From Cytophagia bacterium (GTDB lineage Bacteria; Bacteroidota; Bacteroidia; Cytophagales; Spirosomataceae), in contig REAB01000053.1 of the NCBI GenBank assembly GCA_004293645.1, forward strand, positions 1,182 through 65,181: DNA of 64,000 bases, written 5' to 3'. The notes below the pieces were generated by a model. That model did no database searches and was not told the origin of the DNA. It saw only the letters and a list, made by a program, of their open reading frames with translations. Positions 2,008 through 64,000 of the stretch are shown here, one piece after another. The position numbers and the translations under genes are program-made. The stretch's first letter is position 1. The number at the start of each line of letters is the position of its first letter.

Positions 2008-4248
2008 TTAATTTTTGCGCATATCTTCGGGCAGTACTTTCTTTTTGGAGATGGTAATGTACGTCCCCAACATAATCATTCGGTTGGCGGCGGGTCGTAT
2101 TTCGGTGCGGGTTTTGCCGTCGGCACTATATTGGTAATTAAAGACATTGGGCGTGCCAAGTATGTTGTCTATTGAAAAATAAACGACCATAAAATTGCCT
2201 TTGATATTGGTTAAATAATTAATCCAAAGGCTGGTATTGTGCACATTGGGCGTGCGTTCGGCCAAAAAATGCGGGTTATTGGGGTTGTAATAAGGCCGCC
2301 CACTCGTAAACGAATACGTAGCCGAAACAGTCATGGTGGGCTTGGCAACGAAGTGTTTGTAAACCACATTCAAGTTGTGATTGGACACAAAAGTGGGCTG
2401 GGCTTCGGTCAAATAGTTGCCAAACAATCGCTTAGAATCGCAGTAGCTGTAATTGAGCCAAAAATCGCCGTTTTTGATGGTTTTGCTATCTCTCAAAAAC
2501 AAATCAATGCCCTGCGCGTAGCCTTGCCCCGTATTGTCGGTGAGGCCGTTGGGAAAGCGGCGCGGATTGGCATCAAAATAGCCCGCTTGACTGGGGTACT
2601 CACGCACCAAGTTATCGTATTTTTTGTAATAACTTTCTACCCGCAACGTGCGCTTGTTTTTGATGAATTGGTAATTGAAAACGGCGTGTGTAGCCGACTC
2701 AAACGACAGGTTTTTGTTGTAAAAATAATACTGATAATCAGGCGTTTGGTAAAACTTACCTCCCGCCACCGACACCTGCGAGTGTGCGCCCGTTTTGTAG
2801 GCCAACGAAAAGCGCGGAGCTACGTTGAAACCCGCCGCCAACGACGCATATTCGCCCCGCACGCCCACGCGCCCCGCCAACTTGCGGCTGATGTAAAACT
2901 CCGATTCGGCAAAAAGTGATGCGTAGTTGTCGGTTCTCGAAAACGCCGATTTCTTGCCATCTTTCAAGGCCGAATTGTCAATCGTTAAGTCATATTGGGC
3001 AACGTGGCCTTCGCCGCCAAACAAAATATTGTGATTGCCTTCAAATGAGCGCGTTAGCACGGCGCGGGCTTGGGTACGTTGCTCTTTACGGCCAAAGCGC
3101 ACGGCATCAACTTGCAGGTTGTCGAGGTTGTAAGAATAAGACGCACCCGATTTTAAGACCCACTTAGCGGCGGCATCAAGCGCGTTTTGGTAGGTGCTGG
3201 TAATGAGCAAATTGTCGTTCTGAACGCCAAACGCAACGGGTTTAGTATCGCTGTTGGGGTCGTTGAAACGCAAACTTGAGGCACTTTTGCCATACACGGC
3301 ATCAAACTTAAAGTTTTGGGCTGCCGAAGGTTTGAGGCGATAAGAAGTAGAAACGTTGAGCTGACGCGGAATTTTTATCCAGTCCAAATTTTGGGGATAT
3401 ACCGCAAACAACGGCGTGAGATTGTTATAAGCCACTGTGCCATTAACCGAATGATTATCAGCAAGATGGGTATAGCCCGCCGAGAGTTGCGCCAAATTGG
3501 CGTTTAGCACATAGCCCGACTCGGTGGCTAAATCGGTGGTGTTCATTGAAAACACCGCCGACAACGCTTGGCCGTATTGGGCCGAGTAGCCACCCGTCGA
3601 AAAAGCCGCCCCTTTAAACTGAAAAGGTGCAAACCGTGAGCGCGAGGCCACGTCGGGTGCGGGGGTATTGAAGGCGTTTTGCACGGTGAGGCCGTCAATC
3701 AAAATCTTAGATTCTTGGGCCGAGCCACCCCGCACAAACAAGCCCGTGGACTCGCCGTTGCGCTGTGCGCCTGGCGTAAGCAAAGTCATGGCTTGGGTGA
3801 TGTCGGCCCCGCCGCCCGCCGTCGTAACAATGTCAATGGGTTTGATGGTGGTCGCCTTTTTTTCGTCCGATGCCTCAAACGTGCCCGCCGTGATGGTTAC
3901 GGTGTTGAGCTCGTTGGCCGTTTCTCTGAGTTTTAAAACCAACGAAACAATGCCCCCGTTTAGCACAATCGGCTGGCTGTGTGCTTCGTAGCCAATAAAC
4001 GAACAGTTGAGCGTTTGCGCGCCTTTGTCGGTGGTTTTAAACTGAAAATTGCCTTCGGCATCGGTGCTGGCTCCGTCGTAAGAGCCTTTCAGCGAGATAT
4101 TTGCGCCTGGTAAGGCGTGGCCTTTTTCGTCGGTTACGCGACCTTTGAGGGTGGTTTGTGCGAAGCCAACTGTCGGCTGAGTGATTAAAAAGAGCAATAA
4201 CAAAAATGCTAAATACTTAATGCTCAATGTTAAATGTAAAGTTTTCAT
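2008..4248 (-). CDS. TonB-dependent receptor with CarboxypepD_reg-like N-terminal domain
   Basis: It has a signal peptide, an LKGRVTDEKGHALPGANISLKG domain, a plug and a long beta-barrel-type sequence. Confidence 0.85.
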   Translation of the reverse strand: MKTLHLTLSIKYLAFLLLLFLITQPTVGFAQTTLKGRVTDEKGHALPGANISLKGSYDGASTDAEGNFQFKTTDKGAQTLNCSFIGYEAHSQPIVLNGGIVSLVLKLRETANELNTVTITAGTFEASDEKKATTIKPIDIVTTAGGGADITQAMTLLTPGAQRNGESTGLFVRGGSAQESKILIDGLTVQNAFNTPAPDVASRSRFAPFQFKGAAFSTGGYSAQYGQALSAVFSMNTTDLATESGYVLNANLAQLSAGYTHLADNHSVNGTVAYNNLTPLFAVYPQNLDWIKIPRQLNVSTSYRLKPSAAQNFKFDAVYGKSASSLRFNDPNSDTKPVAFGVQNDNLLITSTYQNALDAAAKWVLKSGASYSYNLDNLQVDAVRFGRKEQRTQARAVLTRSFEGNHNILFGGEGHVAQYDLTIDNSALKDGKKSAFSRTDNYASLFAESEFYISRKLAGRVGVRGEYASLAAGFNVAPRFSLAYKTGAHSQVSVAGGKFYQTPDYQYYFYNKNLSFESATHAVFNYQFIKNKRTLRVESYYKKYDNLVREYPSQAGYFDANPRRFPNGLTDNTGQGYAQGIDLFLRDSKTIKNGDFWLNYSYCDSKRLFGNYLTEAQPTFVSNHNLNVVYKHFVAKPTMTVSATYSFTSGRPYYNPNNPHFLAERTPNVHNTSLWINYLTNIKGNFMVVYFSIDNILGTPNVFNYQYSADGKTRTEIRPAANRMIMLGTYITISKKKVLPEDMRKN

Positions 4249-4428: not shown

Positions 4429-4908
4429 CTACGGATTCAATCGAATGGTGTAACCCACACGCTTGAAGTTTTCGCTGGGCAAAATGTCCGAACCGTTGCC
4501 TTCCAATAGCAACACCAAATTGACAGTACTGCTCACTTGCACGGGGACGCGCAAAATTTCAATACTGGCCGTGCCAAAGCTGGTGTTGGCAGGAATCGTT
4601 ACATCGCGGCTCACAATTCTGAAATGCGTGCCTTCTACTGCCGTGGTGGCGGCGGGGTCAATGGTCATTTTAACTTGCGAGTCAGTGGTGCGCTGTGGTC
4701 CTACCAAATTGATTTGGGTGATTTGTGCGCCTGCTCCATTGTTTACTGGAATGAGCGGAAACGTGCGCCCCGCAGCGGGAGCTGTCCTTACGGTAGCGTC
4801 AAATTCTACCACTGTGCGGCCGTCATAAACCAAGTTGGGGTTCTCAAAGCAAGAAGTCATGCTTCCAGCTATCAAAACCATTGCGAATAATTGAAATATT
4901 TTTTTCAT
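4429..4908 (-). CDS. Small lipoprotein downstream of SusC/SusD (DUF4843-like accessory protein)
   Basis: It has a signal peptide with a lipobox (LIAGSMTSC). I moved the start to MKKIF at 4908, because the longer ORF reads through the GC-hairpin element. Its position is the third gene of the Sus-like locus. Confidence 0.6.
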   Translation of the reverse strand: MKKIFQLFAMVLIAGSMTSCFENPNLVYDGRTVVEFDATVRTAPAAGRTFPLIPVNNGAGAQITQINLVGPQRTTDSQVKMTIDPAATTAVEGTHFRIVSRDVTIPANTSFGTASIEILRVPVQVSSTVNLVLLLEGNGSDILPSENFKRVGYTIRLNP

Positions 4909-46362: not shown

Positions 46363-46866
46363 ATGCCCCAGCCCAACTTACAAAACTTAGACGCGGCCAA
46401 GCGCATCTTGACGGCTTATCTGGAGCGGAAAAGCCTACGCAAAACGCCCGAGCGTTTTGCCATTTTGGAAGAGATTTACTCGCGCAGCGACCATTTTGAC
46501 GTGGACGAGCTGTATATTTCCATGAAAAACAAAAAATACCGCGTGAGCCGCGCCACGGTTTATAATACCCTCGACGTGCTGGTGGACTGCGACTTGGTAA
46601 CGAAACATCAGTTTGGTAAAAACTTGGCGCAGTACGAAAAATCGTACGGTTACAAACAACACGACCACATTATTTGTTTGGACTGCCACCAAGTGCGGGA
46701 GTTTTGCGACCCGCGCGTACAAAATATTCAAACCATGGTGGGCGATATGCTCCAGTTTAATGTGGTGCATCATTCGCTCATTTTTTATGGCAGTTGCCAA
46801 CGCGAAAAATGCGAAAACCGTGTTCAAAACGTAAACCAGCTTGAAAATCGGGCAGTGGCCGAGTAA
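46363..46866 (+). CDS. fur: Fur family transcriptional regulator
   Basis: It has a winged-helix N-terminus and metal-site Cys pairs (ICLDCHQV ... GSCQREKC). Confidence 0.8.
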   Translation: MPQPNLQNLDAAKRILTAYLERKSLRKTPERFAILEEIYSRSDHFDVDELYISMKNKKYRVSRATVYNTLDVLVDCDLVTKHQFGKNLAQYEKSYGYKQHDHIICLDCHQVREFCDPRVQNIQTMVGDMLQFNVVHHSLIFYGSCQREKCENRVQNVNQLENRAVAE

Positions 46867-46876
46867 AAAAATATCT

Positions 46877-46904
46877 AAATCGTCAGTGAAGACACTGACA
46901 ATGG
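46877..46904 (+). repeat. Conserved hairpin-ATGG motif, copy 2, abutting the Rpn start codon
   Basis: The sequence is AAATCGTC AGTG AAGA CACT GACAATGG. The ATG at 46901 is the Rpn gene start. Confidence 0.7.
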
Positions 46905-48073
46905 GCGAAATGAAAGCAAAATACATCAATCCTTTTACAGACTACGGATTTAAAAAAATCTTTGGTGAAGAAGCCAGCAAGCCACTTTTGCTCGACTTCT
47001 TGAACGCGCTGTTGCCATTAGAAAGTAAAATCAAGGATTTATCATTTAAAAACAATGAACAGCTTGGTCAAATTGAAGCCGACAGAAAAGCCATTTATGA
47101 CATTTACTGCGAAAGCGAGAACGGCGAACGATTCATTGTAGAATTGCAAAAAGCAAAGCAAAATTACTTCATTGAGCGCACCATTTATTATTCTACTTTC
47201 CCCATTCAAGAGCAAGCCGACAAAGGACACTGGAATTTTAATTTGAAAGCTGTCTATTGTATTGGGGTCTTGGATTTTACTTTCGATGATTACGAAAATG
47301 AGGTTGAAAAAAGCGAATGGGTACACGAAATAAAGCTGAAAAATCAGAATGGCAAGGTTTTTTATGATAAACTGACCTACATTTACCTCGAAATGCCTAA
47401 TTTTAAAAAAACAGAAAGTGAGCTTGAAACCCGTTTAGACCAATGGTTGTATTTCATCAAAAACTTAGAGGACTTTCAGAATATTCCGCACATTTTAAAA
47501 GACGAAGTTGTATTTAACCAAGCATTTGAGAAAGCTGAGTTGGCTAATTTTAATCAATCTGAATGGAGTAGCTATCAGTACAGCCTAAAAATATTTCGTG
47601 ACCTAAACAACACCTATCAGTATGCAGTTGAAACTGCCCGTGAAGAAGGATTGGCGGAAGGATTGGCGGAAGGAATAGAGAAAGGATTGGCGGAAGGAAT
47701 AGAGAAAGGATTGGCCGAAGGAATAGAAAAAGGAATAGAGAAAGGATTGGCCGAAGGAATAGAAAAAGGAATAGAAAAAGGAATAGAAAAAGGAATAGAA
47801 AAAGGATTGGCCGAAGGAATAGAGAAAGGAATAGAAAAAGGATTGGCCGAAGGAATAGAGAAAGGAATAGAAAAAGGATTGGCCGAAGGAATAGAGAAAG
47901 GATTGGCCGAAGGAATAGAAAAAGGAATAGAAAAAGGATTGGCCGAAGGAATAGAGAAAGGCGAAGAAAAAGCGAAAATAGAAATGGCAAAAACTGCCAA
48001 AAGTATGAACATGAATAAAAGCGACATTGCCAAATTGACGGGATTGTCGGAAGAAGAAATTGATAAATTGTAG
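46901..48073 (+). CDS. Rpn family recombination-promoting nuclease / putative PD-(D/E)XK transposase with an expanded C-terminal tetrapeptide repeat
   Basis: It has the N-terminal hallmark KYINPFTDYGFKKIFGEE ... LLDFLNALL and a D ... E-x-K core (DIYCESENGERFIVELQKAKQ). I moved the start to MGEMKAKY at 46901. Confidence 0.75.
   Translation: MGEMKAKYINPFTDYGFKKIFGEEASKPLLLDFLNALLPLESKIKDLSFKNNEQLGQIEADRKAIYDIYCESENGERFIVELQKAKQNYFIERTIYYSTFPIQEQADKGHWNFNLKAVYCIGVLDFTFDDYENEVEKSEWVHEIKLKNQNGKVFYDKLTYIYLEMPNFKKTESELETRLDQWLYFIKNLEDFQNIPHILKDEVVFNQAFEKAELANFNQSEWSSYQYSLKIFRDLNNTYQYAVETAREEGLAEGLAEGIEKGLAEGIEKGLAEGIEKGIEKGLAEGIEKGIEKGIEKGIEKGLAEGIEKGIEKGLAEGIEKGIEKGLAEGIEKGLAEGIEKGIEKGLAEGIEKGEEKAKIEMAKTAKSMNMNKSDIAKLTGLSEEEIDKL
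47648..47971 (+). repeat. 27 tandem 12-bp units encoding GLAE/GIEK
   Basis: I counted GGATTGGC(G/C)GAA and GGAATAGA(G/A)AAA units directly. They are in frame within the Rpn gene. Confidence 0.9.
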
Positions 48074-48090
48074 CACAAAATCTAAATTGA

Positions 48091-49380
48091 ATGAAAGTTG
48101 ATGTATTGCTCGGCCTCCAATGGGGCGACGAAGGAAAAGGAAAAATAGTAGATGTATTGGCTCCCCAATACCAAGTAGTAGCTCGCTTTCAGGGTGGCCC
48201 AAATGCAGGACACACGCTCGAATTTGACGGCATCAAGCATGTTTTGCACCAAATTCCGTCGGGAATTTTTCGTCCCGAAATCAAAAATATCATTGGCAAT
48301 GGCCTCGTACTTGACCCCATTGTGATGAAACGCGAGATAGACGGTCTTGCCCCTTTTAACATTGATTTCAAGCGCAACCTGTTTATATCCAAAAAGGCTT
48401 CTTTGATACTGCCCACCCACAGTTTGCTTGATGCAGCCTACGAAAAATCGAAGGGAGAATCGAAGATTGGTTCTACCTTACGTGGCATTGGGCCTACTTA
48501 CCAAGACAAAGTGGCGCGGCAAGGTTTGCGCGTGGGGGATATTATCCTGGAAAGTTTTGAAGACAAATACCATCAATTGGTATCCCAGCACAAAACTGTC
48601 TTAGATTTTTATGAGTTTGACTACGCCGCCACGTTGCCCCAAAAAGAGCAAGCTTTTTTTGAAGCCATTGCGTTTTTAAAACAATTTAATTTTGTAGATA
48701 GTGAGTATTTCATCAACCAAGCCTTGAACGACAATTTGAGTGTCTTGGCCGAGGGTGCCCAGGGTTCAATGCTCGACATTGACTTTGGGTCTTATCCTTT
48801 CGTAACGAGTTCAAGTACCGTAACGGCGGGTGCTTGTACGGGTCTGGGTATTTCGCCACGGCACATTGGCGAGGTGTTTGGCATTTTTAAAGCCTATTGC
48901 ACGCGGGTAGGAAGTGGGCCATTTCCAACCGAACTACTCGACGAAATGGGGGAGAAGATGCGCCAAGAAGGGCGCGAGTTTGGCTCTACTACGGGGCGGC
49001 CACGCCGCTGCGGCTGGCTCGATTTGCCCGCCCTCAAATATGCCATCATGATAAACGGCGTAACCCAGCTCATTATGATGAAAGTAGATGTGTTGAATAT
49101 TTTTGACACCATCAATATTTGTACCCACTACCAGTTTCCTGACGGCAGTACTACCGACCAGATTCCCTACGACTTGTGCGATACCGACCTCAAACCTGTT
49201 TATAAAGTAATGCAAGGTTGGGCAACATCGCTCGAAAACTTGCACACTTATGATGAACTCCCTGAGCCGCTGGCTGCGTACATTGACTTCCTGGAAGCGG
49301 AGTTGGGTTTGCCTATTCGTTTTATCTCTACTGGCCCCGACCGCGAAGCCATCATTCACCGCGAAGCTCAGGTAGCATGA
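48091..49380 (+). CDS. purA: Adenylosuccinate synthase
   Basis: QWGDEGKGKIVD P-loop, GGPNAGHT, and full length of 429 aa. Confidence 0.95.
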   Translation: MKVDVLLGLQWGDEGKGKIVDVLAPQYQVVARFQGGPNAGHTLEFDGIKHVLHQIPSGIFRPEIKNIIGNGLVLDPIVMKREIDGLAPFNIDFKRNLFISKKASLILPTHSLLDAAYEKSKGESKIGSTLRGIGPTYQDKVARQGLRVGDIILESFEDKYHQLVSQHKTVLDFYEFDYAATLPQKEQAFFEAIAFLKQFNFVDSEYFINQALNDNLSVLAEGAQGSMLDIDFGSYPFVTSSSTVTAGACTGLGISPRHIGEVFGIFKAYCTRVGSGPFPTELLDEMGEKMRQEGREFGSTTGRPRRCGWLDLPALKYAIMINGVTQLIMMKVDVLNIFDTINICTHYQFPDGSTTDQIPYDLCDTDLKPVYKVMQGWATSLENLHTYDELPEPLAAYIDFLEAELGLPIRFISTGPDREAIIHREAQVA

Positions 49381-57165: not shown

Positions 57166-57891
57166 CTATTTTTCGTCTTTTATTTCTTCAAAATCGGTAA
57201 ACCCTTCGTCGTCATCTTCGTTTTCATCGTCCTCATCTTCTTCCCAATCATCGTCGTCGTCATCGTCGTCAAAATCAAGGTCGTTAAAATCAATACCGCT
57301 TAAATCAAAGCCACCCACGTGCGACAGATAGTGATAGTTTCCTGGACCAACGGCGGTATCAAGTTTTTGGATAATTTGCTTCACGTTGTCGTACGGTCCT
57401 GAGTTGTAAAAAGGCATTCCGTCTTTGCCAAATTCTAAATCCAGCAATTCTACCTCATCGGTGTCGGCAGCCAGCACGTATTGCGAAACAGCCCAATCTT
57501 TGTCTAATGGACTGATGTCCAAGTCTTCGGCATAAGCAATGCCGCCATAAACCACGTTATGAACGAGCGTGTAGTCGGCTATTTCTAATTCTTGCATCTC
57601 CGAAATTTGTTCCAACATTTCTTCGTATTCGTCTATTTCTACATTAAATAGGTAGTGGGTCTGTTTCAGTCCTACACAAAATACGTCAATCAAATAGGTA
57701 GCCCAGGTAATACTGCCGCCCGCGTGGCTGCGCGCCACTACCACCGTTGCCAGTCCTGTTTCGCGCCAGTCGGGATTGAGCCTGCACTCATAGATGGGTA
57801 AGTTGCGTGCTTTACCGCTCTTTAAGTAGGTTTGGGGGCTTTGCAAAGGGGCTTTGGCCACCGATTTTTTGTTTTTAGATTTCTTGCTCAT
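57166..57891 (-). CDS. Hypothetical protein with a poly-acidic C-terminal tail
   Basis: It is a 241-aa ORF ending in DFDDDDDDDDWEEDEDDENEDDDEGFTDFEEIKDEK. Confidence 0.55.
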   Translation of the reverse strand: MSKKSKNKKSVAKAPLQSPQTYLKSGKARNLPIYECRLNPDWRETGLATVVVARSHAGGSITWATYLIDVFCVGLKQTHYLFNVEIDEYEEMLEQISEMQELEIADYTLVHNVVYGGIAYAEDLDISPLDKDWAVSQYVLAADTDEVELLDLEFGKDGMPFYNSGPYDNVKQIIQKLDTAVGPGNYHYLSHVGGFDLSGIDFNDLDFDDDDDDDDWEEDEDDENEDDDEGFTDFEEIKDEK

Positions 57892-57913
57892 TTTTTTAGT
57901 GGATTATTTGTCA

Positions 57914-58089
57914 TTTGTCAGTGGTCATTGGTTATTGGTCATTAGTCAGTGGTCATTTGTCAATAGTTATTTGTTAAGTACTTGCCTGTAAGTAATCGCC
58001 ATTTTATATTTTGGTAAACATTTGGTTCTGCCCGCGCAGACCAATGACTATTGACCAATGACTATTGACCAATGACTACTTTGTCAGTG
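57914..58089. mobile_element. MITE-like element: degenerate GTCATTGGTCAATA-type inverted arrays flanking repeat-family copy C, bounded by a 10-bp direct repeat
   Basis: TTTGTCAGTG occurs at 57914-57923 and 58080-58089. The left arm (57924-57966) is an imperfect reverse complement of the right arm (58039-58079). The core (57976-58029) matches the 3' module of copy A. Confidence 0.5.
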
Positions 58090-58096
58090 CCTTGGC

Positions 58097-60271
58097 TCAT
58101 TTAAGTATCAGGGCGTAAACATCATTTTTGAGGGTGTAATCGGTAATTTTGCCCATGCCTTGATAATTGACTTTAAAGCCGTGGTTTTCGAGCAAATATA
58201 GCGCGTCGCGCAGCGACATTCCGCGTAAATTTGGAATTTTGTTGGGGTTTGTGTCGGTATTGGTCCATTGTTTTTTTGTGTTTGGGGCCGACATTACCCA
58301 GCCGTTTACGTTCACGGGTGCGTCGGTATTCAGTGCTTCGGCAATGGTGCGGAGGTCGTCGGCTTGGCCAGCGCGCAATTGCTTATTGGTTTCTTTGACA
58401 TTGTTTTTTTTGTTGGGTACGGGCGGGTGCATTTTTACGTCGTAGCCCACTATACGGTCGGCTACTTCTTTGAATACGGGTGCGGCCACGCTGCCCGCGT
58501 AGAGGTTGTCGCCACGGCCACCTTTGGGATGGCTCACAAACACAATGCAACTGTATTTGGGGCTTTTGGCAGGAAAATAACCCGCAAAAGACACGTTATA
58601 TTTACCCACTTTGCTGTACGTATTGTTGATAATGAGCTGCGCCGTACCCGTCTTTCCTGCTATTTGGTACTGGTCGTTGTGAATAATGTGTCCCGTGCCT
58701 TGCTTGTCGGCTACTGCGCCTTCGAGCATTTTTTGTACCCGCCTGATGGTCTGTTCGGAGGCAATCCGTTGCTCCAAAACTTGGGGTTTGATGGCCTGAA
58801 TGACCTCGTTGGCGTTGCGTACTTCTTGCACAATCATGGGGCGCACCCAATAACCATTGTTGGCAATGGCATTGTAAAAACTCAATGTTTGCAACGGCGT
58901 AATTTCCCACACGTATCCGTACGACAGGCGCGTGGCCGAGGTGCCGTCCCAGCCCGTAGTTTTGGGTTGCGGGGCCAGCGGCGGGGCTTCGCCCAGCATG
59001 GCTACGCCCGTGGGTTGGGTCAAATGAAACTTTTTGAGGTATTCCATGTATTTGTAGGGGTTGGTATAAAACCCGCTTCGTTGCATAATCAGGTGCGTTC
59101 CTACGTTCGACGATTGCTCCAATACCTGCTGCACCGTAATTGTGCCGTGGGCTTTGGTGTCGGTAATGGTAACTCTACCGTAAGTAGTGCTGCCATTGCC
59201 AGTCTGAATGGACGTGGCAGGCGAAACCTTGCCTTCTTCGAGGGCGGCTACCATAGTGGCAAGTTTGAAAGTAGAGCCTGGGTTGGTGGGTTGGGCCAGG
59301 GCGTAATTGAAGGTTTCGGCGTAGCCCGTGTCTTTTTTGCTGAGGGCTAAATTAACCATCGCTTTGATGGCTCCCGTTTGCACTTCCATTACAATAACGG
59401 TGCCGTAGTCGGCTTGGTAGCGGTTTAGAGTTTTGCGCAACGACGACTCGGCAATGTCCTGAAAATTAACGTCGAGCGTAGTGTAGAGGTCGTAGCCGTT
59501 GGCGGGTTGTAGTTTTTCGCTTTCTTCAAAGGGCATAAAAGTTTTGTCGTCGAGTACCCTAAACAAGCCTATTCCGGGCGTTCCCGACAGTTTTCTGTCA
59601 AAACTTGCCTCCAAACCCACCAGTCCACGGTAGGTGGCGCGGTCGAGGTAGCCAATGGTGCGGGCGGCCAAATTGCCAAAAGGCAGGTAGCGGCGATAAA
59701 AAACGGGGAGCTTGCCACCGCGCGTTTCGCCGTTGTTAAATTGCCTAAAAAACGGCCAACCGCGCGTTGCCTTCGCACTGGGCTGTATTTGCTGCGTGGT
59801 TATCATCTGGTATTCTCGAAAAGTAATCTGCCGATTGAGCAGCCGCACGTTGCGGTTACCTTTCTTTTTGTTTACTTCAAACTCATGGCGGGCAAATTTT
59901 AACTCGCGCAGGTAGTCTTCTTTGGTGCGTTGCCCAAACGTATTGGCAAAAAGCGTAGCCAACGAGTCTATGCGGCTATAAAAGTACTTTTCTTTGCTGG
60001 CGGCGGGGTCTATCGAAACCTCATAATAGGGCAAAGAAGTAGCCAAGAGGCTGCCATCGCTCGAATAAATATTGCCGCGCATGGCCGGAATGGTGTCAAT
60101 CCGAACGGTGTTGGCCATGTATTTTACCCACGGTTTGCCTTTGTACTTGGCATAGTGCTGCACATAGACAATGCGCCATATCACGAGTATGGCCACAATG
60201 ATAAGCAGCGAAGACACCACCCAAGAGCGTCGTGCAATGTCTGCCCGAATGTTGTTGGTTTTGGAAATCAT
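58097..60271 (-). CDS. ftsI: Penicillin-binding protein 2 / FtsI-type peptidoglycan D,D-transpeptidase with a C-terminal PASTA domain
   Basis: It has SxxK (GSTFKLA), SxN (SSNVG), KTG (GKTGTA) and an N-terminal TM anchor, and it follows ftsL. Confidence 0.9.
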   Translation of the reverse strand: MISKTNNIRADIARRSWVVSSLLIIVAILVIWRIVYVQHYAKYKGKPWVKYMANTVRIDTIPAMRGNIYSSDGSLLATSLPYYEVSIDPAASKEKYFYSRIDSLATLFANTFGQRTKEDYLRELKFARHEFEVNKKKGNRNVRLLNRQITFREYQMITTQQIQPSAKATRGWPFFRQFNNGETRGGKLPVFYRRYLPFGNLAARTIGYLDRATYRGLVGLEASFDRKLSGTPGIGLFRVLDDKTFMPFEESEKLQPANGYDLYTTLDVNFQDIAESSLRKTLNRYQADYGTVIVMEVQTGAIKAMVNLALSKKDTGYAETFNYALAQPTNPGSTFKLATMVAALEEGKVSPATSIQTGNGSTTYGRVTITDTKAHGTITVQQVLEQSSNVGTHLIMQRSGFYTNPYKYMEYLKKFHLTQPTGVAMLGEAPPLAPQPKTTGWDGTSATRLSYGYVWEITPLQTLSFYNAIANNGYWVRPMIVQEVRNANEVIQAIKPQVLEQRIASEQTIRRVQKMLEGAVADKQGTGHIIHNDQYQIAGKTGTAQLIINNTYSKVGKYNVSFAGYFPAKSPKYSCIVFVSHPKGGRGDNLYAGSVAAPVFKEVADRIVGYDVKMHPPVPNKKNNVKETNKQLRAGQADDLRTIAEALNTDAPVNVNGWVMSAPNTKKQWTNTDTNPNKIPNLRGMSLRDALYLLENHGFKVNYQGMGKITDYTLKNDVYALILK

Positions 60272-60295
60272 GGGTTAGAATGGTTAAAGTGGGTA

Positions 60296-60685
60296 CTATT
60301 TTTCAACGGGTTTTATGACAATTCGATAAGGGGCTTGCTTGCTTTCTATCAGCCCCAACGCTTGGAGTTTAGGGGCCAATTCCGACTGCTTGCCGCTCTT
60401 CATGTAGTGGGCTTTTCTGATGGTATAAGTGGCTTGCAACTGATGAATTTCGTCGGTGAGTTTGCGCATTTGGCGCATCTGACGCTCGGCGTTGAGCCTA
60501 AAACCAATCAAAATAAGCCCCAAAAGCAGCAAAAACCCCGCCCTGTCAATGTAACGCACGGGAAATTCTTTGCCAATTGCTTTTTCTAAGTTCAACCTGT
60601 TGCCTATCCAATTCATGGTTCTGCTCTCGGTTTTAGCTTTTTTAGGAATCGACTTTTTGGTGCCTTTAACAACGTTCTGAGCCAT
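60296..60685 (-). CDS. ftsL: FtsL-like cell division protein (Bacteroidota type)
   Basis: It is a small bitopic protein (one TM, then a coiled coil) located between rsmH and ftsI. Confidence 0.7.
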   Translation of the reverse strand: MAQNVVKGTKKSIPKKAKTESRTMNWIGNRLNLEKAIGKEFPVRYIDRAGFLLLLGLILIGFRLNAERQMRQMRKLTDEIHQLQATYTIRKAHYMKSGKQSELAPKLQALGLIESKQAPYRIVIKPVEK

Positions 60686-60731
60686 TTTTATGCCTTATTT
60701 TTGGTTAATTTATGCAGATTAAGGACTATAC

Positions 60732-60789
60732 CTATTTAGGTCGGAGACCTAATGACACCCGTGCGTAGTTTCAAACTACGCACAACGAA
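60732..60789 (+). repeat. 58-bp double-hairpin repeat, copy 1
   Basis: It is identical (58/58) to 61483-61540. Its hairpins are TTAGGTC-GGA-GACCTAA and GTGCGTAGTTT-C-AAACTACGCAC. Confidence 0.9.
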
Positions 60790-60830
60790 CGCGTCTTTTT
60801 GGTGCCTTTAACAACGTTCTGAGCTCCCAT
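60771..60830 (-). pseudogene. Truncated duplicate of the ftsL 5' end (19 codons: MGAQNVVKGTKKTRSLCVV*)
   Basis: The 30 nt at 60795-60824 are identical to the ftsL start region at 60653-60682. The frame then runs into the 58-bp repeat and stops. Confidence 0.7.
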
Positions 60831-60855
60831 TTTGCCAAACCCCTGTTGGTGGTCG

Positions 60856-61425
60856 TTATTTTTTTTCGTTTATATATTCGTTCGTAAAATGTTGTTTATG
60901 TTTCGGTTTCGCAAATTTGTCAGCGTTGTATTCTTTTGAATTTCCTTTAGGAATTGAAAGTGAAGCCCAATTTTCGCCACACAATAGTTTTCCAATAAAC
61001 ACAATTTGTCCAACGTGATATGGATAATGTGCAAGTTGTCTGTTTATTGCTTCTGCTATAGTGTGTCCTTGATTTCGGATAAATATTTCCTTCGTCAAAT
61101 CTTTTTCTGTCAACGGACTGATTGCGTTAAATAAACAAGTCCAACCTTCATTCCATTTTGCCAAAAGTTCTGTTCGGTCTGCAATGTCGTTGTCAAATTC
61201 AGCATCTCTTTGTCGCCATTCTTTTTCTCCGTCTGTTGTCAAAAAATCTGTCCAACGTGAAAGCATATTTCCCCACAAATGTTTTACAATTGTCGCAATA
61301 CTATTACTTTCTTCATTTAATTGTCTGAAAAGTTGTTCGTCTGTTAGTTGCGAAAATGTTTTTTCTCCAAGCATTTTGTAATACTCAAATTGTTTTTTCG
61401 CACTGTCTAAAAAGTCGTTTGTCAT
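60856..61425 (-). CDS. DinB-superfamily (DUF1572-like) protein
   Basis: It has a four-helix DinB-like sequence with conserved His residues (VKHLWGN, LAHYPYHVGQ). It is AT-rich relative to the flanking dcw genes. Confidence 0.7.
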   Translation of the reverse strand: MTNDFLDSAKKQFEYYKMLGEKTFSQLTDEQLFRQLNEESNSIATIVKHLWGNMLSRWTDFLTTDGEKEWRQRDAEFDNDIADRTELLAKWNEGWTCLFNAISPLTEKDLTKEIFIRNQGHTIAEAINRQLAHYPYHVGQIVFIGKLLCGENWASLSIPKGNSKEYNADKFAKPKHKQHFTNEYINEKK

Positions 61426-61482
61426 ATCATTTCAATGTCGTTAAATTTCTTTCGGTTTCGGGTTTTATATAATTGCCACCAA

Positions 61483-61540
61483 CTATTTAGGTCGGAGACC
61501 TAATGACACCCGTGCGTAGTTTCAAACTACGCACAACGAA
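61483..61540 (+). repeat. 58-bp double-hairpin repeat, copy 2
   Basis: It is identical to 60732-60789. Confidence 0.9.
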
Positions 61541-61550
61541 TATCAAATAT

Positions 61551-61715
61551 CAAATTTCCTGACACTAACGGATTTGGTGGGGCAAATAATATAGATACTG
61601 ACTATTAGGTAGTTACAAAATTAGGGAACTGTTGTTTTGCTACTTGGTGGGCAGGAAACAAGTTACATATCGTTATTTTATACCCCCACCAAATTAGTTA
61701 GTGTCAGCAAATTTC
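61551..61715. mobile_element. 149-bp MITE (61559-61707) with 24-bp terminal inverted repeats and an 8-bp target-site duplication
   Basis: The left TIR is CTGACACTAACGGATTTGGTGGGG. The reverse complement of the right TIR is CTGACACTAACTAATTTGGTGGGG (22/24). The TSD CAAATTTC lies at 61551-61558 and 61708-61715. There is no internal ORF. Confidence 0.75.
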
Positions 61716-61727
61716 AAATACCAAATA

Positions 61728-62630
61728 TCAAACTTTTTCCGCTATTCGGAGCTTGGCACTGCGGGCGCGGGGGTTTTCGGCGGTTTCGGTGGCCGATGGC
61801 TCAATGGCTTTTCGTACTACCGCGCTGAGCGGTTTCAAATCGTTGCCAAAGAGGTCTTTTTCTACGTCGCCGTGAAACTTTCCTTTGTTGATAAAATTCT
61901 TCACCAAACGGTCTTCCAACGAGTGGTAAGACATCACTACGAGGCGGCCATTGGGTTTGAGCATTTCGGCGGTTTGGGTCAAAAACTCTTGTAAAGCCGT
62001 CATTTCGTCGTTTACTTCGATGCGCAACGCCTGAAAAATCTGGGCAAAATACTTGTTTTCTTTGCCGCGCGGGGCGTAGCGTTGCAACACACCTTTGAGG
62101 TCGTTTACGGTTTCGATGGGTTGGTTGAGGCGGGCTGTAAACACGGCCTGGGCGGCGGTTTTTGCGTTTTGCACTTCGCCATACATTCCAAAAATACGGT
62201 GCAGCTCGGCACTCGAATAGCCGTTAATGACCTCGCCAGCGGTTTGGCCTGCGCGTTGGTTCATGCGCATATCGAGGTTGGCCTCAAAGCGCGTCGAAAA
62301 GCCCCGCTCGGCGGTGTCAAACTGGTGCGACGAAACCCCCAAATCGGCCAGAATCCCATCTACTTCGGTGGCACCGTAGAGCCGGGCATATTTTTTCAAA
62401 TGTCTAAAATTGGCATCAATAAAAGTAAACTGTTTGTCGGCCACAAAACGCGCATTTTGGTTGGCATCGGGGTCTTGGTCAAACGAAAAAAGCCGTCCCT
62501 TGTCGCCCAAACGCGCCAAAATAGCCCGCGAATGGCCGCCTCCGCCAAAAGTGGCATCAATATAAACGCCGTCGGGCTTTAAGTTTAAACCTTCTAAGCA
62601 CTCGGCCAGCATAACAGGGTTGTGGTACAT
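61728..62630 (-). CDS. rsmH: 16S rRNA (cytosine1402-N4)-methyltransferase
   Basis: MYHNPVMLAECLEGL ... DATFGGGGHSRAIL; full length of 300 aa. Confidence 0.9.
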   Translation of the reverse strand: MYHNPVMLAECLEGLNLKPDGVYIDATFGGGGHSRAILARLGDKGRLFSFDQDPDANQNARFVADKQFTFIDANFRHLKKYARLYGATEVDGILADLGVSSHQFDTAERGFSTRFEANLDMRMNQRAGQTAGEVINGYSSAELHRIFGMYGEVQNAKTAAQAVFTARLNQPIETVNDLKGVLQRYAPRGKENKYFAQIFQALRIEVNDEMTALQEFLTQTAEMLKPNGRLVVMSYHSLEDRLVKNFINKGKFHGDVEKDLFGNDLKPLSAVVRKAIEPSATETAENPRARSAKLRIAEKV

Positions 62631-63043
62631 AATTTAGTAGCGAGTGAGTGGGCGTTTTGATGAACCAAAAATAATGAAATCACGCCACAAAGTTGCGACG
62701 CTTGCTCACTTGTCAAGAATGATGGGGTAAAAAAACCAAGGAAAGAAGCTGCCGAAGCCGCTTAAATTTTAACGCAACAAAGATAAAGAAAGCAACGCAA
62801 ATAAGGAACTGTAAAATTTGGTATTTTTAAATATTAATTTTTAAGATACTGAAAATCAGTAGTTTGTGTTGGAAATATATTTTGATTTGAAACCAGCCCA
62901 CTAACCGCGAGCTTGACTGCTGGCACCATAGCCAAATACTGAAATAAAAATGCGGCCAAACTTCTGGACACTTGGCGGTTGGTATGTAGGTTGAAGATGA
63001 CACTTTCTTTTTGTATCATTGCAAGCTCAATAACAACCTTTTT

Positions 63044-64000
63044 ATGACCTTATTTTCCGACAAAAATGTCTATAACCTCCACAAATGGTTTGGACTCATT
63101 GGTGGCCTTTTTATGCTGATGTTGAGCCTAACGGGCGTGCTTTTATTGTACAGCGAACCCCTCGACCGCGCCCTCAACCCCGCACTCACGCAGGTAATGC
63201 CCGCAGGCCAGCGGCTGTCGGTTGATTCGCTGCTGAACATAGTCAAAAAACAATATCCAGAAGCCGAAATCGGCAATATTTTGCTCCAAACCGAAGCCCC
63301 CGACTTAGCGATTGTTACGGAGGCTTCGGTTGATAAAAAACGGATTTTGGTGCATCAAAACCCCTACACGGGCTTGGTGTTGGGGAGCCGCGAGCGCAAC
63401 CAAACGTTGCACCGCAAGATTTTGGTCATTCACGAGCACCTCACCATTGGCGATTGGGGGCATTTCATTTTGTTCATCGTGGGCGTTTGCTTGTTGGGTT
63501 TGGTTGTTACGGGTCTTTGGTATTATCGCCGCTCGTTGTTGGGCGTGTTCAAAGTGGGCGTACGTCAGCGCAATACTTACCTCAAAAATTCTGATTTGCA
63601 CAAGTTGGTAGGTTTTTGTGGGTTTTTGTTTCTGCTCGCCATGGGCGGCACGGGCACTTTTATGCACTGGGAAAAAGTAGAAAAAATGTTTGACGATGAA
63701 CAAAAACGCCCCGAGTCATCCGCCGCAATTCCCCCAACGGCCAATGCGCCGCTCGAAATGCTTATTCAAAAAGCAACAGCCAGCGTGCCTGGTTTTGTGG
63801 CGCAGCAAATAGTTTTTGCCCGCCACGCACAGCAGCCCACCGCCGTGCGTGGCACGCGCCCCCAAAGCAACCGACTGCTGGGAAAGTTTACAACCGAGGT
63901 GTTGTTTGATGTCCAAAGTGGTGAGCAGCAAGGTATTGTACACAAAGAAGACCAAGATTTGGAGGCCAACTTAGAAGCCAGTATGGAGCAAATTCACTTT
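63044..64000 (+). CDS. PepSY-associated TM-helix protein; the 3' end lies outside the window. It is absent from the ORF track because it has no stop.
   Basis: I translated it by hand from ATG 63044: 319 codons with no stop to the window edge. The N-terminus (HKWFGLIGGLFMLMLSLTGVLLLY) and later TM segments are typical of the PepSY_TM family. Confidence 0.65.
   Translation, partial: MTLFSDKNVYNLHKWFGLIGGLFMLMLSLTGVLLLYSEPLDRALNPALTQVMPAGQRLSVDSLLNIVKKQYPEAEIGNILLQTEAPDLAIVTEASVDKKRILVHQNPYTGLVLGSRERNQTLHRKILVIHEHLTIGDWGHFILFIVGVCLLGLVVTGLWYYRRSLLGVFKVGVRQRNTYLKNSDLHKLVGFCGFLFLLAMGGTGTFMHWEKVEKMFDDEQKRPESSAAIPPTANAPLEMLIQKATASVPGFVAQQIVFARHAQQPTAVRGTRPQSNRLLGKFTTEVLFDVQSGEQQGIVHKEDQDLEANLEASMEQIHF

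Follow-up and report, generated by a model that had tools for sequence, protein, structure and literature searches.

Why do two identical, hairpin-forming repeats bracket a single AT-rich gene at a junction of the cell-division gene cluster? The question is raised by a 64-kb stretch of a Cytophagia bacterium genome (contig REAB01000053.1; hereafter, the window), in which a gene of the DUF1572/DinB superfamily lies between rsmH and ftsL and is flanked by two 58-nucleotide (nt) repeats, the 58-mers A1 and A2. A first-pass annotation had taken this arrangement to resemble a cassette with structured repeats, or an element that is actively spreading. Our analysis leads to a different view: the region from A2 to A1 does not look like a self-contained mobile cassette, and its repeats look like a local 142-nt duplication around an insertion. 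The explanation we consider probable combines a local duplication of the ftsL leader, a microhomology-guided insertion of foreign DNA into one of the two copies, and a sweep of the product through the population.

Repeats around the DUF1572 gene

The spacer between the rsmH stop and the ftsL start occupies 60686-61727 (1042 nt), in agreement with the roughly 1 kb given by the first-pass annotation. Read along the gene strand, the rsmH stop is followed by a spacer P of 30 nt (here interrupted by a miniature inverted-repeat transposable element (MITE)-like element), A2, 57 nt, the DUF1572/DinB gene, 25 nt, ATGGGA with repeat B1, CG, A1, a leader x of 46 nt, and ATG-B2-ftsL (Table 1). The annotation had also described the spacer gene as a 189-aa DinB-superfamily member, more AT-rich than its neighbours; both Pfam and the base composition reported below confirm that description.

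Table 1. Positions of the features discussed, in window coordinates
Feature	Position	Strand	Description
rsmH (MraW methyltransferase)	62630..61728	(-)	Pfam Methyltransf_5 4e-95; native, upstream
Native rsmH-proximal spacer P	61541..61727	(-)	30 nt, TATTTGGTATTTGAAATCTGTTATTTGATA in strains without the MITE-like element; here interrupted by it
MITE-like element, 149 nt	61559-61707		Terminal inverted repeats CTGACACTAAC.../...GTTAGTGTCAG; 8-bp target duplication GAAATTTG at 61708-61715 and 61551-61558
58-mer copy A2	61483..61540	(-)	Upstream copy of the duplicated ftsL-leader module; gene-strand 3' edge = junction J1
Horizontally acquired segment, ~650 nt	60834..61482	(-)	57-nt upstream region (TTGGTGGCAATTAT motif), DUF1572 open reading frame (ORF), donor-type 3' intergenic repeat
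DUF1572/DinB-superfamily gene	61425..60856	(-)	189 aa, intact; Pfam DUF1572 1e-74, DinB_2 4e-09
Donor-type repetitive extragenic palindromic (REP)-like 3' element	60815..60852	(-)	CCACCAACAGGGGTTTGGCAAAATGGGAGC then CAGAACG; contains right junction J2
Vestigial hybrid ftsL start	60771..60830	(-)	19-codon upstream ORF MGAQNVVKGTKKTRSLCVV and stop; stops in hairpin-2 loop of A1
B1	60792-60824	(-)	Duplicate of ftsL codons 2-12; then CG (60790-60791), then A1
58-mer copy A1	60732..60789	(-)	Downstream copy, putatively native position before ftsL leader
Putatively native ftsL leader x	60686..60731	(-)	46 nt, AT-rich (26% GC, counted); downstream copy only
ftsL (FtsL_2)	60685..60296	(-)	Pfam FtsL_2 7e-17; intact, native; start MAQNVVK of ancestral type
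B2	60650-60682	(-)	ftsL codons 2-12, native copy
ftsI (PBP3)	60271..58097	(-)	Pfam Transpeptidase, PBP_dimer, PASTA; native, downstream

The two 58-mers are direct repeats 751 nt apart, identical at 58/58 positions, and were the only two matches to the sequence in the window (0/100 shuffles gave any). Each contains a hairpin 1, TTAGGTC-GGA-GACCTAA, with a perfect 7-bp stem, and a hairpin 2, GTGCGTAGTT-TCA-AACTACGCAC, of 10 bp with 11-nt palindromic arms around one central base. Folding analysis revealed that each 58-mer forms these two separate perfect hairpins as RNA or DNA and on either strand, that they persist in longer contexts, and that the folding z-scores range from -4.4 to -5.1. The positions, identity and paired perfect hairpins described in the first-pass annotation are thereby reproduced. 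The guanine-plus-cytosine (GC) content of the 58-mer, 46.6% by count, is host-like, and its ends are not inverted repeats of each other.

A second direct repeat, B, had been overlooked. It consists of 33 nt, GCTCAGAACGTTGTTAAAGGCACCAAAAAG(A/T)CG, corresponding to ftsL codons 2-12; its two copies are 32/33 identical in the window and 33/33 identical in strain locus L003, at a spacing of 142 nt. Because this spacing equals 2 + 58 + 46 + 3 + 33, A and B constitute one duplicated unit; the two repeats share one register and a single novel joint, GACG-CG-TTCG at 60789-60794. B1 is preceded by an in-frame ATGGGA (ATG at 60830), giving a short hybrid reading frame. Since the FtsL proteins of relatives begin MAQNV(V/S)K, as B2 does, B2 represents the native start and B1 a vestige. 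A local tandem duplication, which the first-pass annotation had itself named as the outcome that would undo its cassette, thus explains the repeats, with the 58-mer count drawn from about 84 kb of species sequence.

The nearest relatives in the protein database have FtsL identities of 79, 73 and 70%. In relatives L023, L024 and L026, rsmH is followed directly by ftsL across spacers of 147, 14 and 73 nt, with neither a DinB gene nor a 58-mer. The comparison of this spacer across relatives had been proposed as a check on the first reading, and the absence of the DinB gene indicates that its position is not ancestral synteny. In the closest relative, the spacer (L023:3854-4000) consists of a tandem motif of about 17-20 nt (AGTGTAAAGAATAAAGG...). 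As this spacer holds a tandem motif of its own, the rsmH-ftsL junction appears to accumulate repeats that vary among lineages.

Foreign DNA, its junctions and its spread

Base composition sets the insert apart from its surroundings. GC in 200-nt windows is 0.32-0.39 across the insert versus 0.46-0.58 in the flanks, and the DUF1572 gene as a whole has a GC of 0.34 and a third-position GC (GC3) of 0.26, against 0.47 and 0.54 for the host. Its GC3 (0.258) contrasts with those of rsmH (0.59), ftsL (0.55) and ftsI (0.60), and lies below that of every one of the window's 37 long ORFs (minimum 0.337).

Nucleotide comparison with DUF1572 loci elsewhere revealed identities of 85-87% for loci L019, L022, L028 and L029, which lie in contigs of 29-42% GC, and 78% for L021. 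Combined, the homology spans 61482..60834, from the first base after A2 (where the L028 homology starts) to 4 nt before the vestigial ATG (where the L029 homology stops, at GGGTTTGGC); the right boundary of the foreign segment falls between 60834 and about 60812, within microhomology. The gene matches its host in GC in the 29-33% GC contigs L019 and L022, and is markedly AT-richer than its surroundings in this genome, L028 and L029. The 85-87% homologs elsewhere and the GC mismatch with the host identify the segment as a recent import from a low-GC Bacteroidota lineage. Atypical composition, absence from the locus in relatives and closest homologs in other lineages all support the DUF1572 gene as a recent, horizontally acquired insertion that splits a conserved rsmH-ftsL junction.

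The protein has thousands of homologs, of which the best 120 share 78-91% aa identity and come from Algoriella, Chryseobacterium, Fluviicola, Pedobacter, Flavobacteriales and Ignavibacteria. The five homolog loci examined represent five unrelated gene neighbourhoods. This conservation, across Flavobacteriales, Sphingobacteriales, Cytophagia and Ignavibacteria, is far higher than expected from the divergence of the hosts, which suggests frequent exchange of the gene as a near-minimal unit. An upstream motif, (A)TTGGTGGC(A/C)ATTAT, is conserved among the DUF1572 loci. Searches with the whole spacer returned only DUF1572 genes at about 70% identity from plasmids and no match from phages.

The edges of the 58-mers proved informative. 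On the gene strand, the 3' edge is the join between A2 and the foreign DNA (J1), and the 5' edge is the join between B1 plus CG and A1 (J3), which reads ...AAAAAGACG-CG-TTCGTTG... with the CG at 60790-60791 as a 2-nt filler. Because these edges coincide with the start of foreign homology and with the duplication joint, they are not the intrinsic ends of an element. J1 lies 4 nt past hairpin 1, and the location of both J1 and J3 within 4-6 nt of hairpin feet suggests that the perfect hairpins may have acted as stall or break sites.

The remaining junction, J2, lies within the donor-type REP-like element. Its CCACCAACAGGGGTTTGGCAAAATGGGAGC flank is collinear with an L019 intergenic repeat found after each of three consecutive genes (whole alignment score 35, 0/300 shuffles; foreign-only part, score 22, 0/1000 shuffles). 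One L019 copy continues ...GGGGCAGGACGTTGTTA, collinear with ftsL codons 3-7 (ATGGCTCAGAACGTTGTTA), and host ftsL CAGAACGTTGTTA and repeat CAGGACGTTGTTA are identical at 12/13 positions (p 0.007). We infer from this related repeat copy that J2 was a crossover in microhomology between a donor-type repeat and ftsL. A crossover within the 12/13 similarity would account for the landing of the fragment here, for B1 reading ATGGGAGCTCAG rather than ATGGCTCAG, and for the extra GGA in the vestigial start.

L019 is a 33% GC metagenome-assembled genome (MAG; GCA_043726715.1) whose repeat family, ...CAACATRGGGTTTKGNG...GGGCWGGACGTT..., occurs at 2470-2660, 3760-3930 and 4575-4611, after genes for a beta-lactamase-family protein, a thioredoxin-like protein and DUF1572 in a row, and recurs within intergenic regions. 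This distribution identifies it as a genome-wide intergenic repeat of that lineage. The idea that direct repeats around DUF1572 in L019 delimit a cassette was dropped, as the motif also follows the two preceding genes. On the alignments above, a piece of this type of repeat family appears to have travelled with the DUF1572 gene into the window.

Together, these features can be ordered into a probable history. The native locus would have consisted of rsmH, P (30 nt), the double hairpin A, x (46 nt) and ATG-ftsL, with A taken as native. A stretch of 140 nt, beginning at the first base of A and ending with ftsL codon 12, would have been duplicated in tandem, creating J3. In the upstream copy, the stretch from the end of A to the ftsL start (x plus the start region) would have been replaced by about 650 nt of foreign DNA, comprising the DUF1572/DinB gene together with 57 nt of its own upstream DNA and part of an intergenic repeat from the donor genome, with J1 as an illegitimate join and J2 as a crossover at the 12/13-nt similarity. 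The downstream leader and ftsL start would have been left untouched, and the composite allele would then have spread through the species by homologous recombination. Duplication and insertion may have been two steps in either order or one multi-switch (template-switching) replication event, or the wild-type leader may have been restored by recombination.

To follow this allele within the species, we collected loci by exact-protein look-ups from several Cytophagia bacterium MAGs, one JGI metagenome and several Logan assemblies. Loci L001-L006 carry the complete A2-DinB-B1-A1-ftsL arrangement, and the other contigs end either 30 nt inside a 58-mer or in the MITE-like element; Logan unitigs on the ftsL side begin exactly 30 nt inside A1. 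A stop at 30 nt is where unitigs assembled at k=31 would break on meeting a repeat, and two copies of the 58-mer fully account for the assembly breaks. Exact RsmH and FtsL look-ups found no empty allele (rsmH-P-A-x-ftsL) among the species contigs.

Across the 809-nt A2..A1 block, the window differs from four strains by 0, 1, 1 and 1 single-nucleotide polymorphisms (SNPs), whereas the flanks carry 19-55 SNPs in 4369 nt (rsmH 3-8/903 nt, ftsL 0-11/390 nt, ftsI 10-34/2175 nt, upstream PepSY gene 1-13/901 nt), corresponding to flank divergences of 0.3-2.8% between strains. From the flank rates, 3.5-10.2 SNPs would be expected in the block, with Poisson P values per strain of 4e-5, 0.002, 0.011 and 0.14. 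Furthermore, B1 has a GACG variant that occurs at B2 only in strains L002 and L003. The scarcity of SNPs in the block and this variant indicate that the composite allele is younger than the divergence of the strains and moved between backgrounds by homologous recombination, which points to its recent sweep through the species. The first-pass annotation had taken the perfect identity of the repeats as a sign of recency; low block diversity likewise marks the repeats as young and the insertion as recent.

Illegitimate or microhomology-mediated integration with local duplication has been described for natural transformation and at duplication join points in enteric bacteria. The present locus shares with those cases a minimal foreign fragment without mobility genes, host sequence duplicated around the insert, short or imperfect junction similarities (12/13 nt at J2; 0-2 nt at J1 and J3) and an intact essential downstream gene. 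It differs in that the insert lies inside one duplication copy rather than at the joint, in that the outer junctions abut perfect hairpins, and in its target, the rsmH-ftsL region of the division cluster. The mechanism is ordinary, its setting in an essential division operon unusual.

Weighing the explanations

Several observations weigh against duplication followed by foreign insertion. The native status of A and x is conjectural, given that the species contigs hold no empty allele and the nearest relative (79% FtsL identity) lacks the 58-mer. Three junctions are needed, and J3 carries a 2-nt filler instead of clean microhomology; the J2 microhomology is deduced from one repeat copy in one donor-like 33% GC MAG. 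The repeat boundaries hug the double hairpin (4 and 6 nt), as recognised element ends also would. The copy number of the 58-mer is known for the window and strain loci rather than for the rest of the host genome, and hairpin 2, which matches Saprospiraceae genomes exactly over 23 nt, may be part of a broader family of palindromes. The idea that leader x is a deletion remnant of the foreign segment was rejected, as the two show no similarity, and x resembles nothing else in the window.

The alternative that survives best, although we regard it as unlikely, is a Campbell-type integration. A circular or tandem intermediate of 751 nt, made up of A, the foreign gene and an ftsL 5' fragment and derived from an earlier rsmH-P-A-DinB-ftsL allele, would have integrated by homologous recombination at the 58-mer of a wild-type allele; equivalently, wild-type leader DNA from another cell would have joined illegitimately behind the vestigial ftsL start and restored the native leader. 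The order A2-foreign-B1-CG-A1-x-B2 is the exact product of a single crossover at A, the GACG allele shared by B1 and the B2 of L002 and L003 implies that alleles are reshuffled at the locus, and the contrast between cassette and flank diversity suits recombinational spread. However, this scheme requires an additional intermediate (rsmH-P-A-DinB-ATGGGAGCTCAG-ftsL without A1-x) that was not observed, 58 bp is short for RecA-dependent integration, and the end product is indistinguishable from that of tandem duplication plus insertion.

Somewhat less credible again is the proposal that the 58-mer is a small dispersed host repeat, akin to REP elements, bacterial interspersed mosaic elements (BIMEs) or MITEs, which either inserted twice independently or supplied pre-existing copies as recombination substrates. 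A search for the hairpin-2 23-mer in one genome each of 185,579 species returned only 5 loci, none with hairpin 1, and did not return the host species itself, perhaps because of masking. The exact matches, in another Bacteroidota class (L014:5592, L015:5041, L016:6379 and L017:962, all in the uncultured Lewinella MAG CAJXPD01; L018:1822 in the Saprospiraceae MAG DASRXQ01), form the tips of 33-59-nt perfect palindromes with different outer stems, located between convergent housekeeping genes (AlgH/M23 peptidase, amidohydrolase/Leu-Phe transferase and SmpB/DPP-IV). They could represent a REP-like terminator family, descend from the same ancestor as the window hairpin, or match it in one 11-nt arm by chance. 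A 189-aa ORF beside the L015 copy was considered as a link to DUF1572 and rejected; it encodes an unrelated AlgH/DUF179 protein.

These matches in two Saprospiraceae MAGs suggest that palindromes sharing this core do occur as families. In the donor-like genome L019, a repeat family of that genome follows one gene after another, and assemblies do break at the 58-mer, all in keeping with dispersal. Yet two copies suffice for those breaks, and in about 84 kb of species sequence only two copies exist, both at this locus: no further copy, exact or diverged, was found in the 64-kb window (including by blastn-short) or in some 20 kb of extra strain loci. The Saprospiraceae copies all lack hairpin 1, and independent insertion leaves the co-duplicated 33 nt of ftsL and the 142-nt register unexplained. 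The composite 58-mer pattern and the hairpin-1 22-mer each gave 0 matches in JGI metagenome contigs, a collection that seems to lack the host species and so provides a weak negative; the hairpin-2 23-mer gave 0 matches in viral contigs.

Compared with REP/BIME repeats, REPINs (paired REP sequences) and MITEs, the 58-mers share short, stable extragenic hairpins and a hairpin-2 core that recurs in palindrome tips, but they were seen as two copies only, both at one locus, in the 84 kb of species sequence, were co-duplicated with coding sequence, and have a hairpin 1 found nowhere else. They also lack the terminal inverted repeats of a MITE, and their flanking 33-nt repeat is ftsL coding sequence present on one side only. 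The genuine MITE-like element next door, which has terminal inverted repeats and duplicates 8 bp of its target, looks quite different.

The first-pass reading itself, if taken to mean that A2...A1 is a mobile single-gene cassette and the 58-mers are ends for a recombinase acting in trans (integron/attC-like, or a single-strand transposase dependent on hairpins, of the type of IS200/IS605 and its non-autonomous palindrome-associated transposable element (PATE) derivatives), is now improbable. Identical, directly oriented subterminal hairpins on one strand resemble IS200/IS605-type ends, and A2 and A1 do carry subterminal direct hairpins on the same strand at both ends, as in IS200/IS605/PATE elements, a likeness of arrangement only. 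In its favour, too, the repeat boundaries lie 4-6 nt from hairpin feet, the DUF1572 gene has clearly moved among Bacteroidota as a near-minimal unit, and the allele swept the species. Against this, the 58-mer is absent beside DUF1572 homologs in five other contexts, it is host-like in GC while the cargo is not, and the moving segment would need to carry 12 codons of the very gene beside its insertion site. The unit was found nowhere else in the scans made, and its edges are recombination junctions.

Comparison with integrons leads to the same conclusion. Like a cassette, or an attC cluster lacking an integrase, the locus has a single promoterless-looking ORF between structured repeats, in operon orientation, with a cargo found in many contexts. 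An attC site folds into a single imperfect hairpin in which the R'' and R' boxes (RYYYAAC...GTTRRRY) pair, as do the L'' and L' boxes, and some bases are extrahelical. Folds of both DNA strands with 10-nt flanks gave instead two independent perfect hairpins with unpaired ends and no bulges, and the 58-mer was rejected as an attC. Moreover, attC sites differ between cassettes, whereas both repeats here are identical; only two repeats are present, they are host-like in composition and absent from other DUF1572 loci, and neither integrase nor attI accompanies them.

No tyrosine or serine recombinase or integrase was seen within about 20 kb (some 6 kb on each side in strain loci; 39.9-64 kb of the window), which upholds the earlier statement that no integrase is nearby, and no Y1 transposase (TnpA) was present in the ORFs scanned in the window and strain loci. 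The sole mobility-type gene observed, and the only candidate for the cassette reading, is a PDDEXK_2 'transposase' (4e-68) at 46841-48073 (+), about 13 kb away; wedged between fur (46363-46866) and purA (48091-49380), it belongs to what we take to be the Rpn/YhgA-like family of recombination-promoting nucleases.

Finally, the double hairpin might itself serve recombination, as an end or a target. A hairpin-recognising enzyme encoded elsewhere in the genome, a single-strand transposase-like or other structure-specific recombinase, would capture and move single genes, and would have set this one ahead of an essential division gene along with an ftsL fragment acquired by read-through; if true, this would be a new kind of hairpin-bracketed single-gene cassette in Bacteroidota, but we give it the least credence of all.

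One further repeat deserves mention. In L022, a contig of 29% GC, diverged direct repeats of 56 nt (875-930 and 1632-1687; 71% identity) lie on either side of the DUF1572 homolog at a spacing of 757 nt, compared with 751 nt here, and no further copy occurs in the 5.6-kb L022 locus. Parallel insertion with duplication and a lineage-specific intergenic motif are both candidate explanations.

Gene product, surroundings and significance

The inserted gene encodes a full-length DUF1572 protein (250 bits against a cutoff of 23; profile positions 3-163 of 163) that also matches DinB_2 (37.4 bits; cutoff 24.8). Its AlphaFold (AF2) model (predicted local distance difference test score, pLDDT, 76; predicted template-modelling score, pTM, 0.71) adopts the DinB/YfiT four-helix bundle, and the top Foldseek matches in the Protein Data Bank (PDB), 8F5V, 6IZ2, 1RXQ and 3DKA, have probabilities of 1.00, template-modelling (TM) scores of 0.52-0.65 and identities of 12-18%; the best fold matches are mycothiol S-transferase, DR0053, YfiT, YjoA, DinB and BstA. 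Residues H49, H121, H133 and H137, putative metal-binding histidines, are invariant in 16 homologs. Sequence-level searches of PDB and NCBIfam gave no match, and a literature search found DUF1572 mentioned only in a general survey of domains of unknown function (DUFs).

With DinB/YfiT enzymes (8F5V, YfiT 1RXQ and the bacillithiol transferase BstA 5WK0), the product shares the DUF1572/DinB_2 match, the four-helix-bundle fold and the conserved histidines, differing in its mere 12-18% identity to solved structures. On the strength of the predicted fold, it is probably a DinB/YfiT-fold metalloenzyme, a metal-dependent thiol transferase or hydrolase. Neither mycothiol nor bacillithiol is known from Bacteroidota.

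The gene is co-oriented with its neighbours, and no canonical terminator precedes or follows it; co-transcription with rsmH-ftsL-ftsI is therefore presumed. Scans for sigma-70-type promoters and intrinsic terminators yielded nothing above shuffle expectation, and the gene strand has no terminator-like site. A regular-expression search of the gene strand for the Bacteroidetes -7 box TAnnTTTG gave a sole match, inside the MITE-like element (61623..61616), at chance-level frequency.

The MITE-like element has terminal inverted repeats of about 25 nt (CTGACACTAACTAATTTGGTGGGG...) and a 36-nt inverted repeat, and folds into a long hairpin (z -5.8). It is present in the window, L005, L006 and L009 and absent from L001-L004, which have a clean empty site; MAG contigs end within it, which makes multiple copies in the genome probable. 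An Rfam scan of 60200-62000 at an E-value threshold returned only chance microRNA-precursor matches on its hairpin and none on the 58-mer. Another polymorphism lies about 3 kb upstream of rsmH, where one MAG has a gene for a 385-aa AAA_14/DUF4143 ATPase (L001:1722-2879) and two strains have a 135-aa ORF (L002:1757-2164, L003:1669-2076).

The division cluster is fragmentary in this lineage (window 57166-64000; L023, L024, L026), and its one conserved feature is the rsmH-ftsL pairing. In place of mraZ, the region upstream of rsmH has a divergent PepSY_TM gene. After ftsI there is no murE; a 241-aa protein with a poly-Asp/Glu tail (57166-57891) and a convergent hydrolase are encoded there. In relatives L023 and L026, ftsI does not adjoin ftsL.

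The locus carries a general caution: when perfectly identical structured repeats surround a gene, they need not mark the limits of a mobile element and may instead have arisen as a side effect of hairpin-associated recombination. It also offers a datable case in which a single foreign gene without mobility machinery enters an essential division operon and the cell survives. A short duplication of the leader and 5' end preserves one intact ftsL, and a chance similarity of 12/13 nt sets the landing site. The sweep in a natural population suggests an advantage of the DUF1572/DinB enzyme or of its placement under division-operon transcription. The occurrence of the DUF1572 gene, at 79-91% protein identity, in unrelated contexts across several Bacteroidota classes and Ignavibacteria marks it as frequently exchanged, and its function is worth testing.

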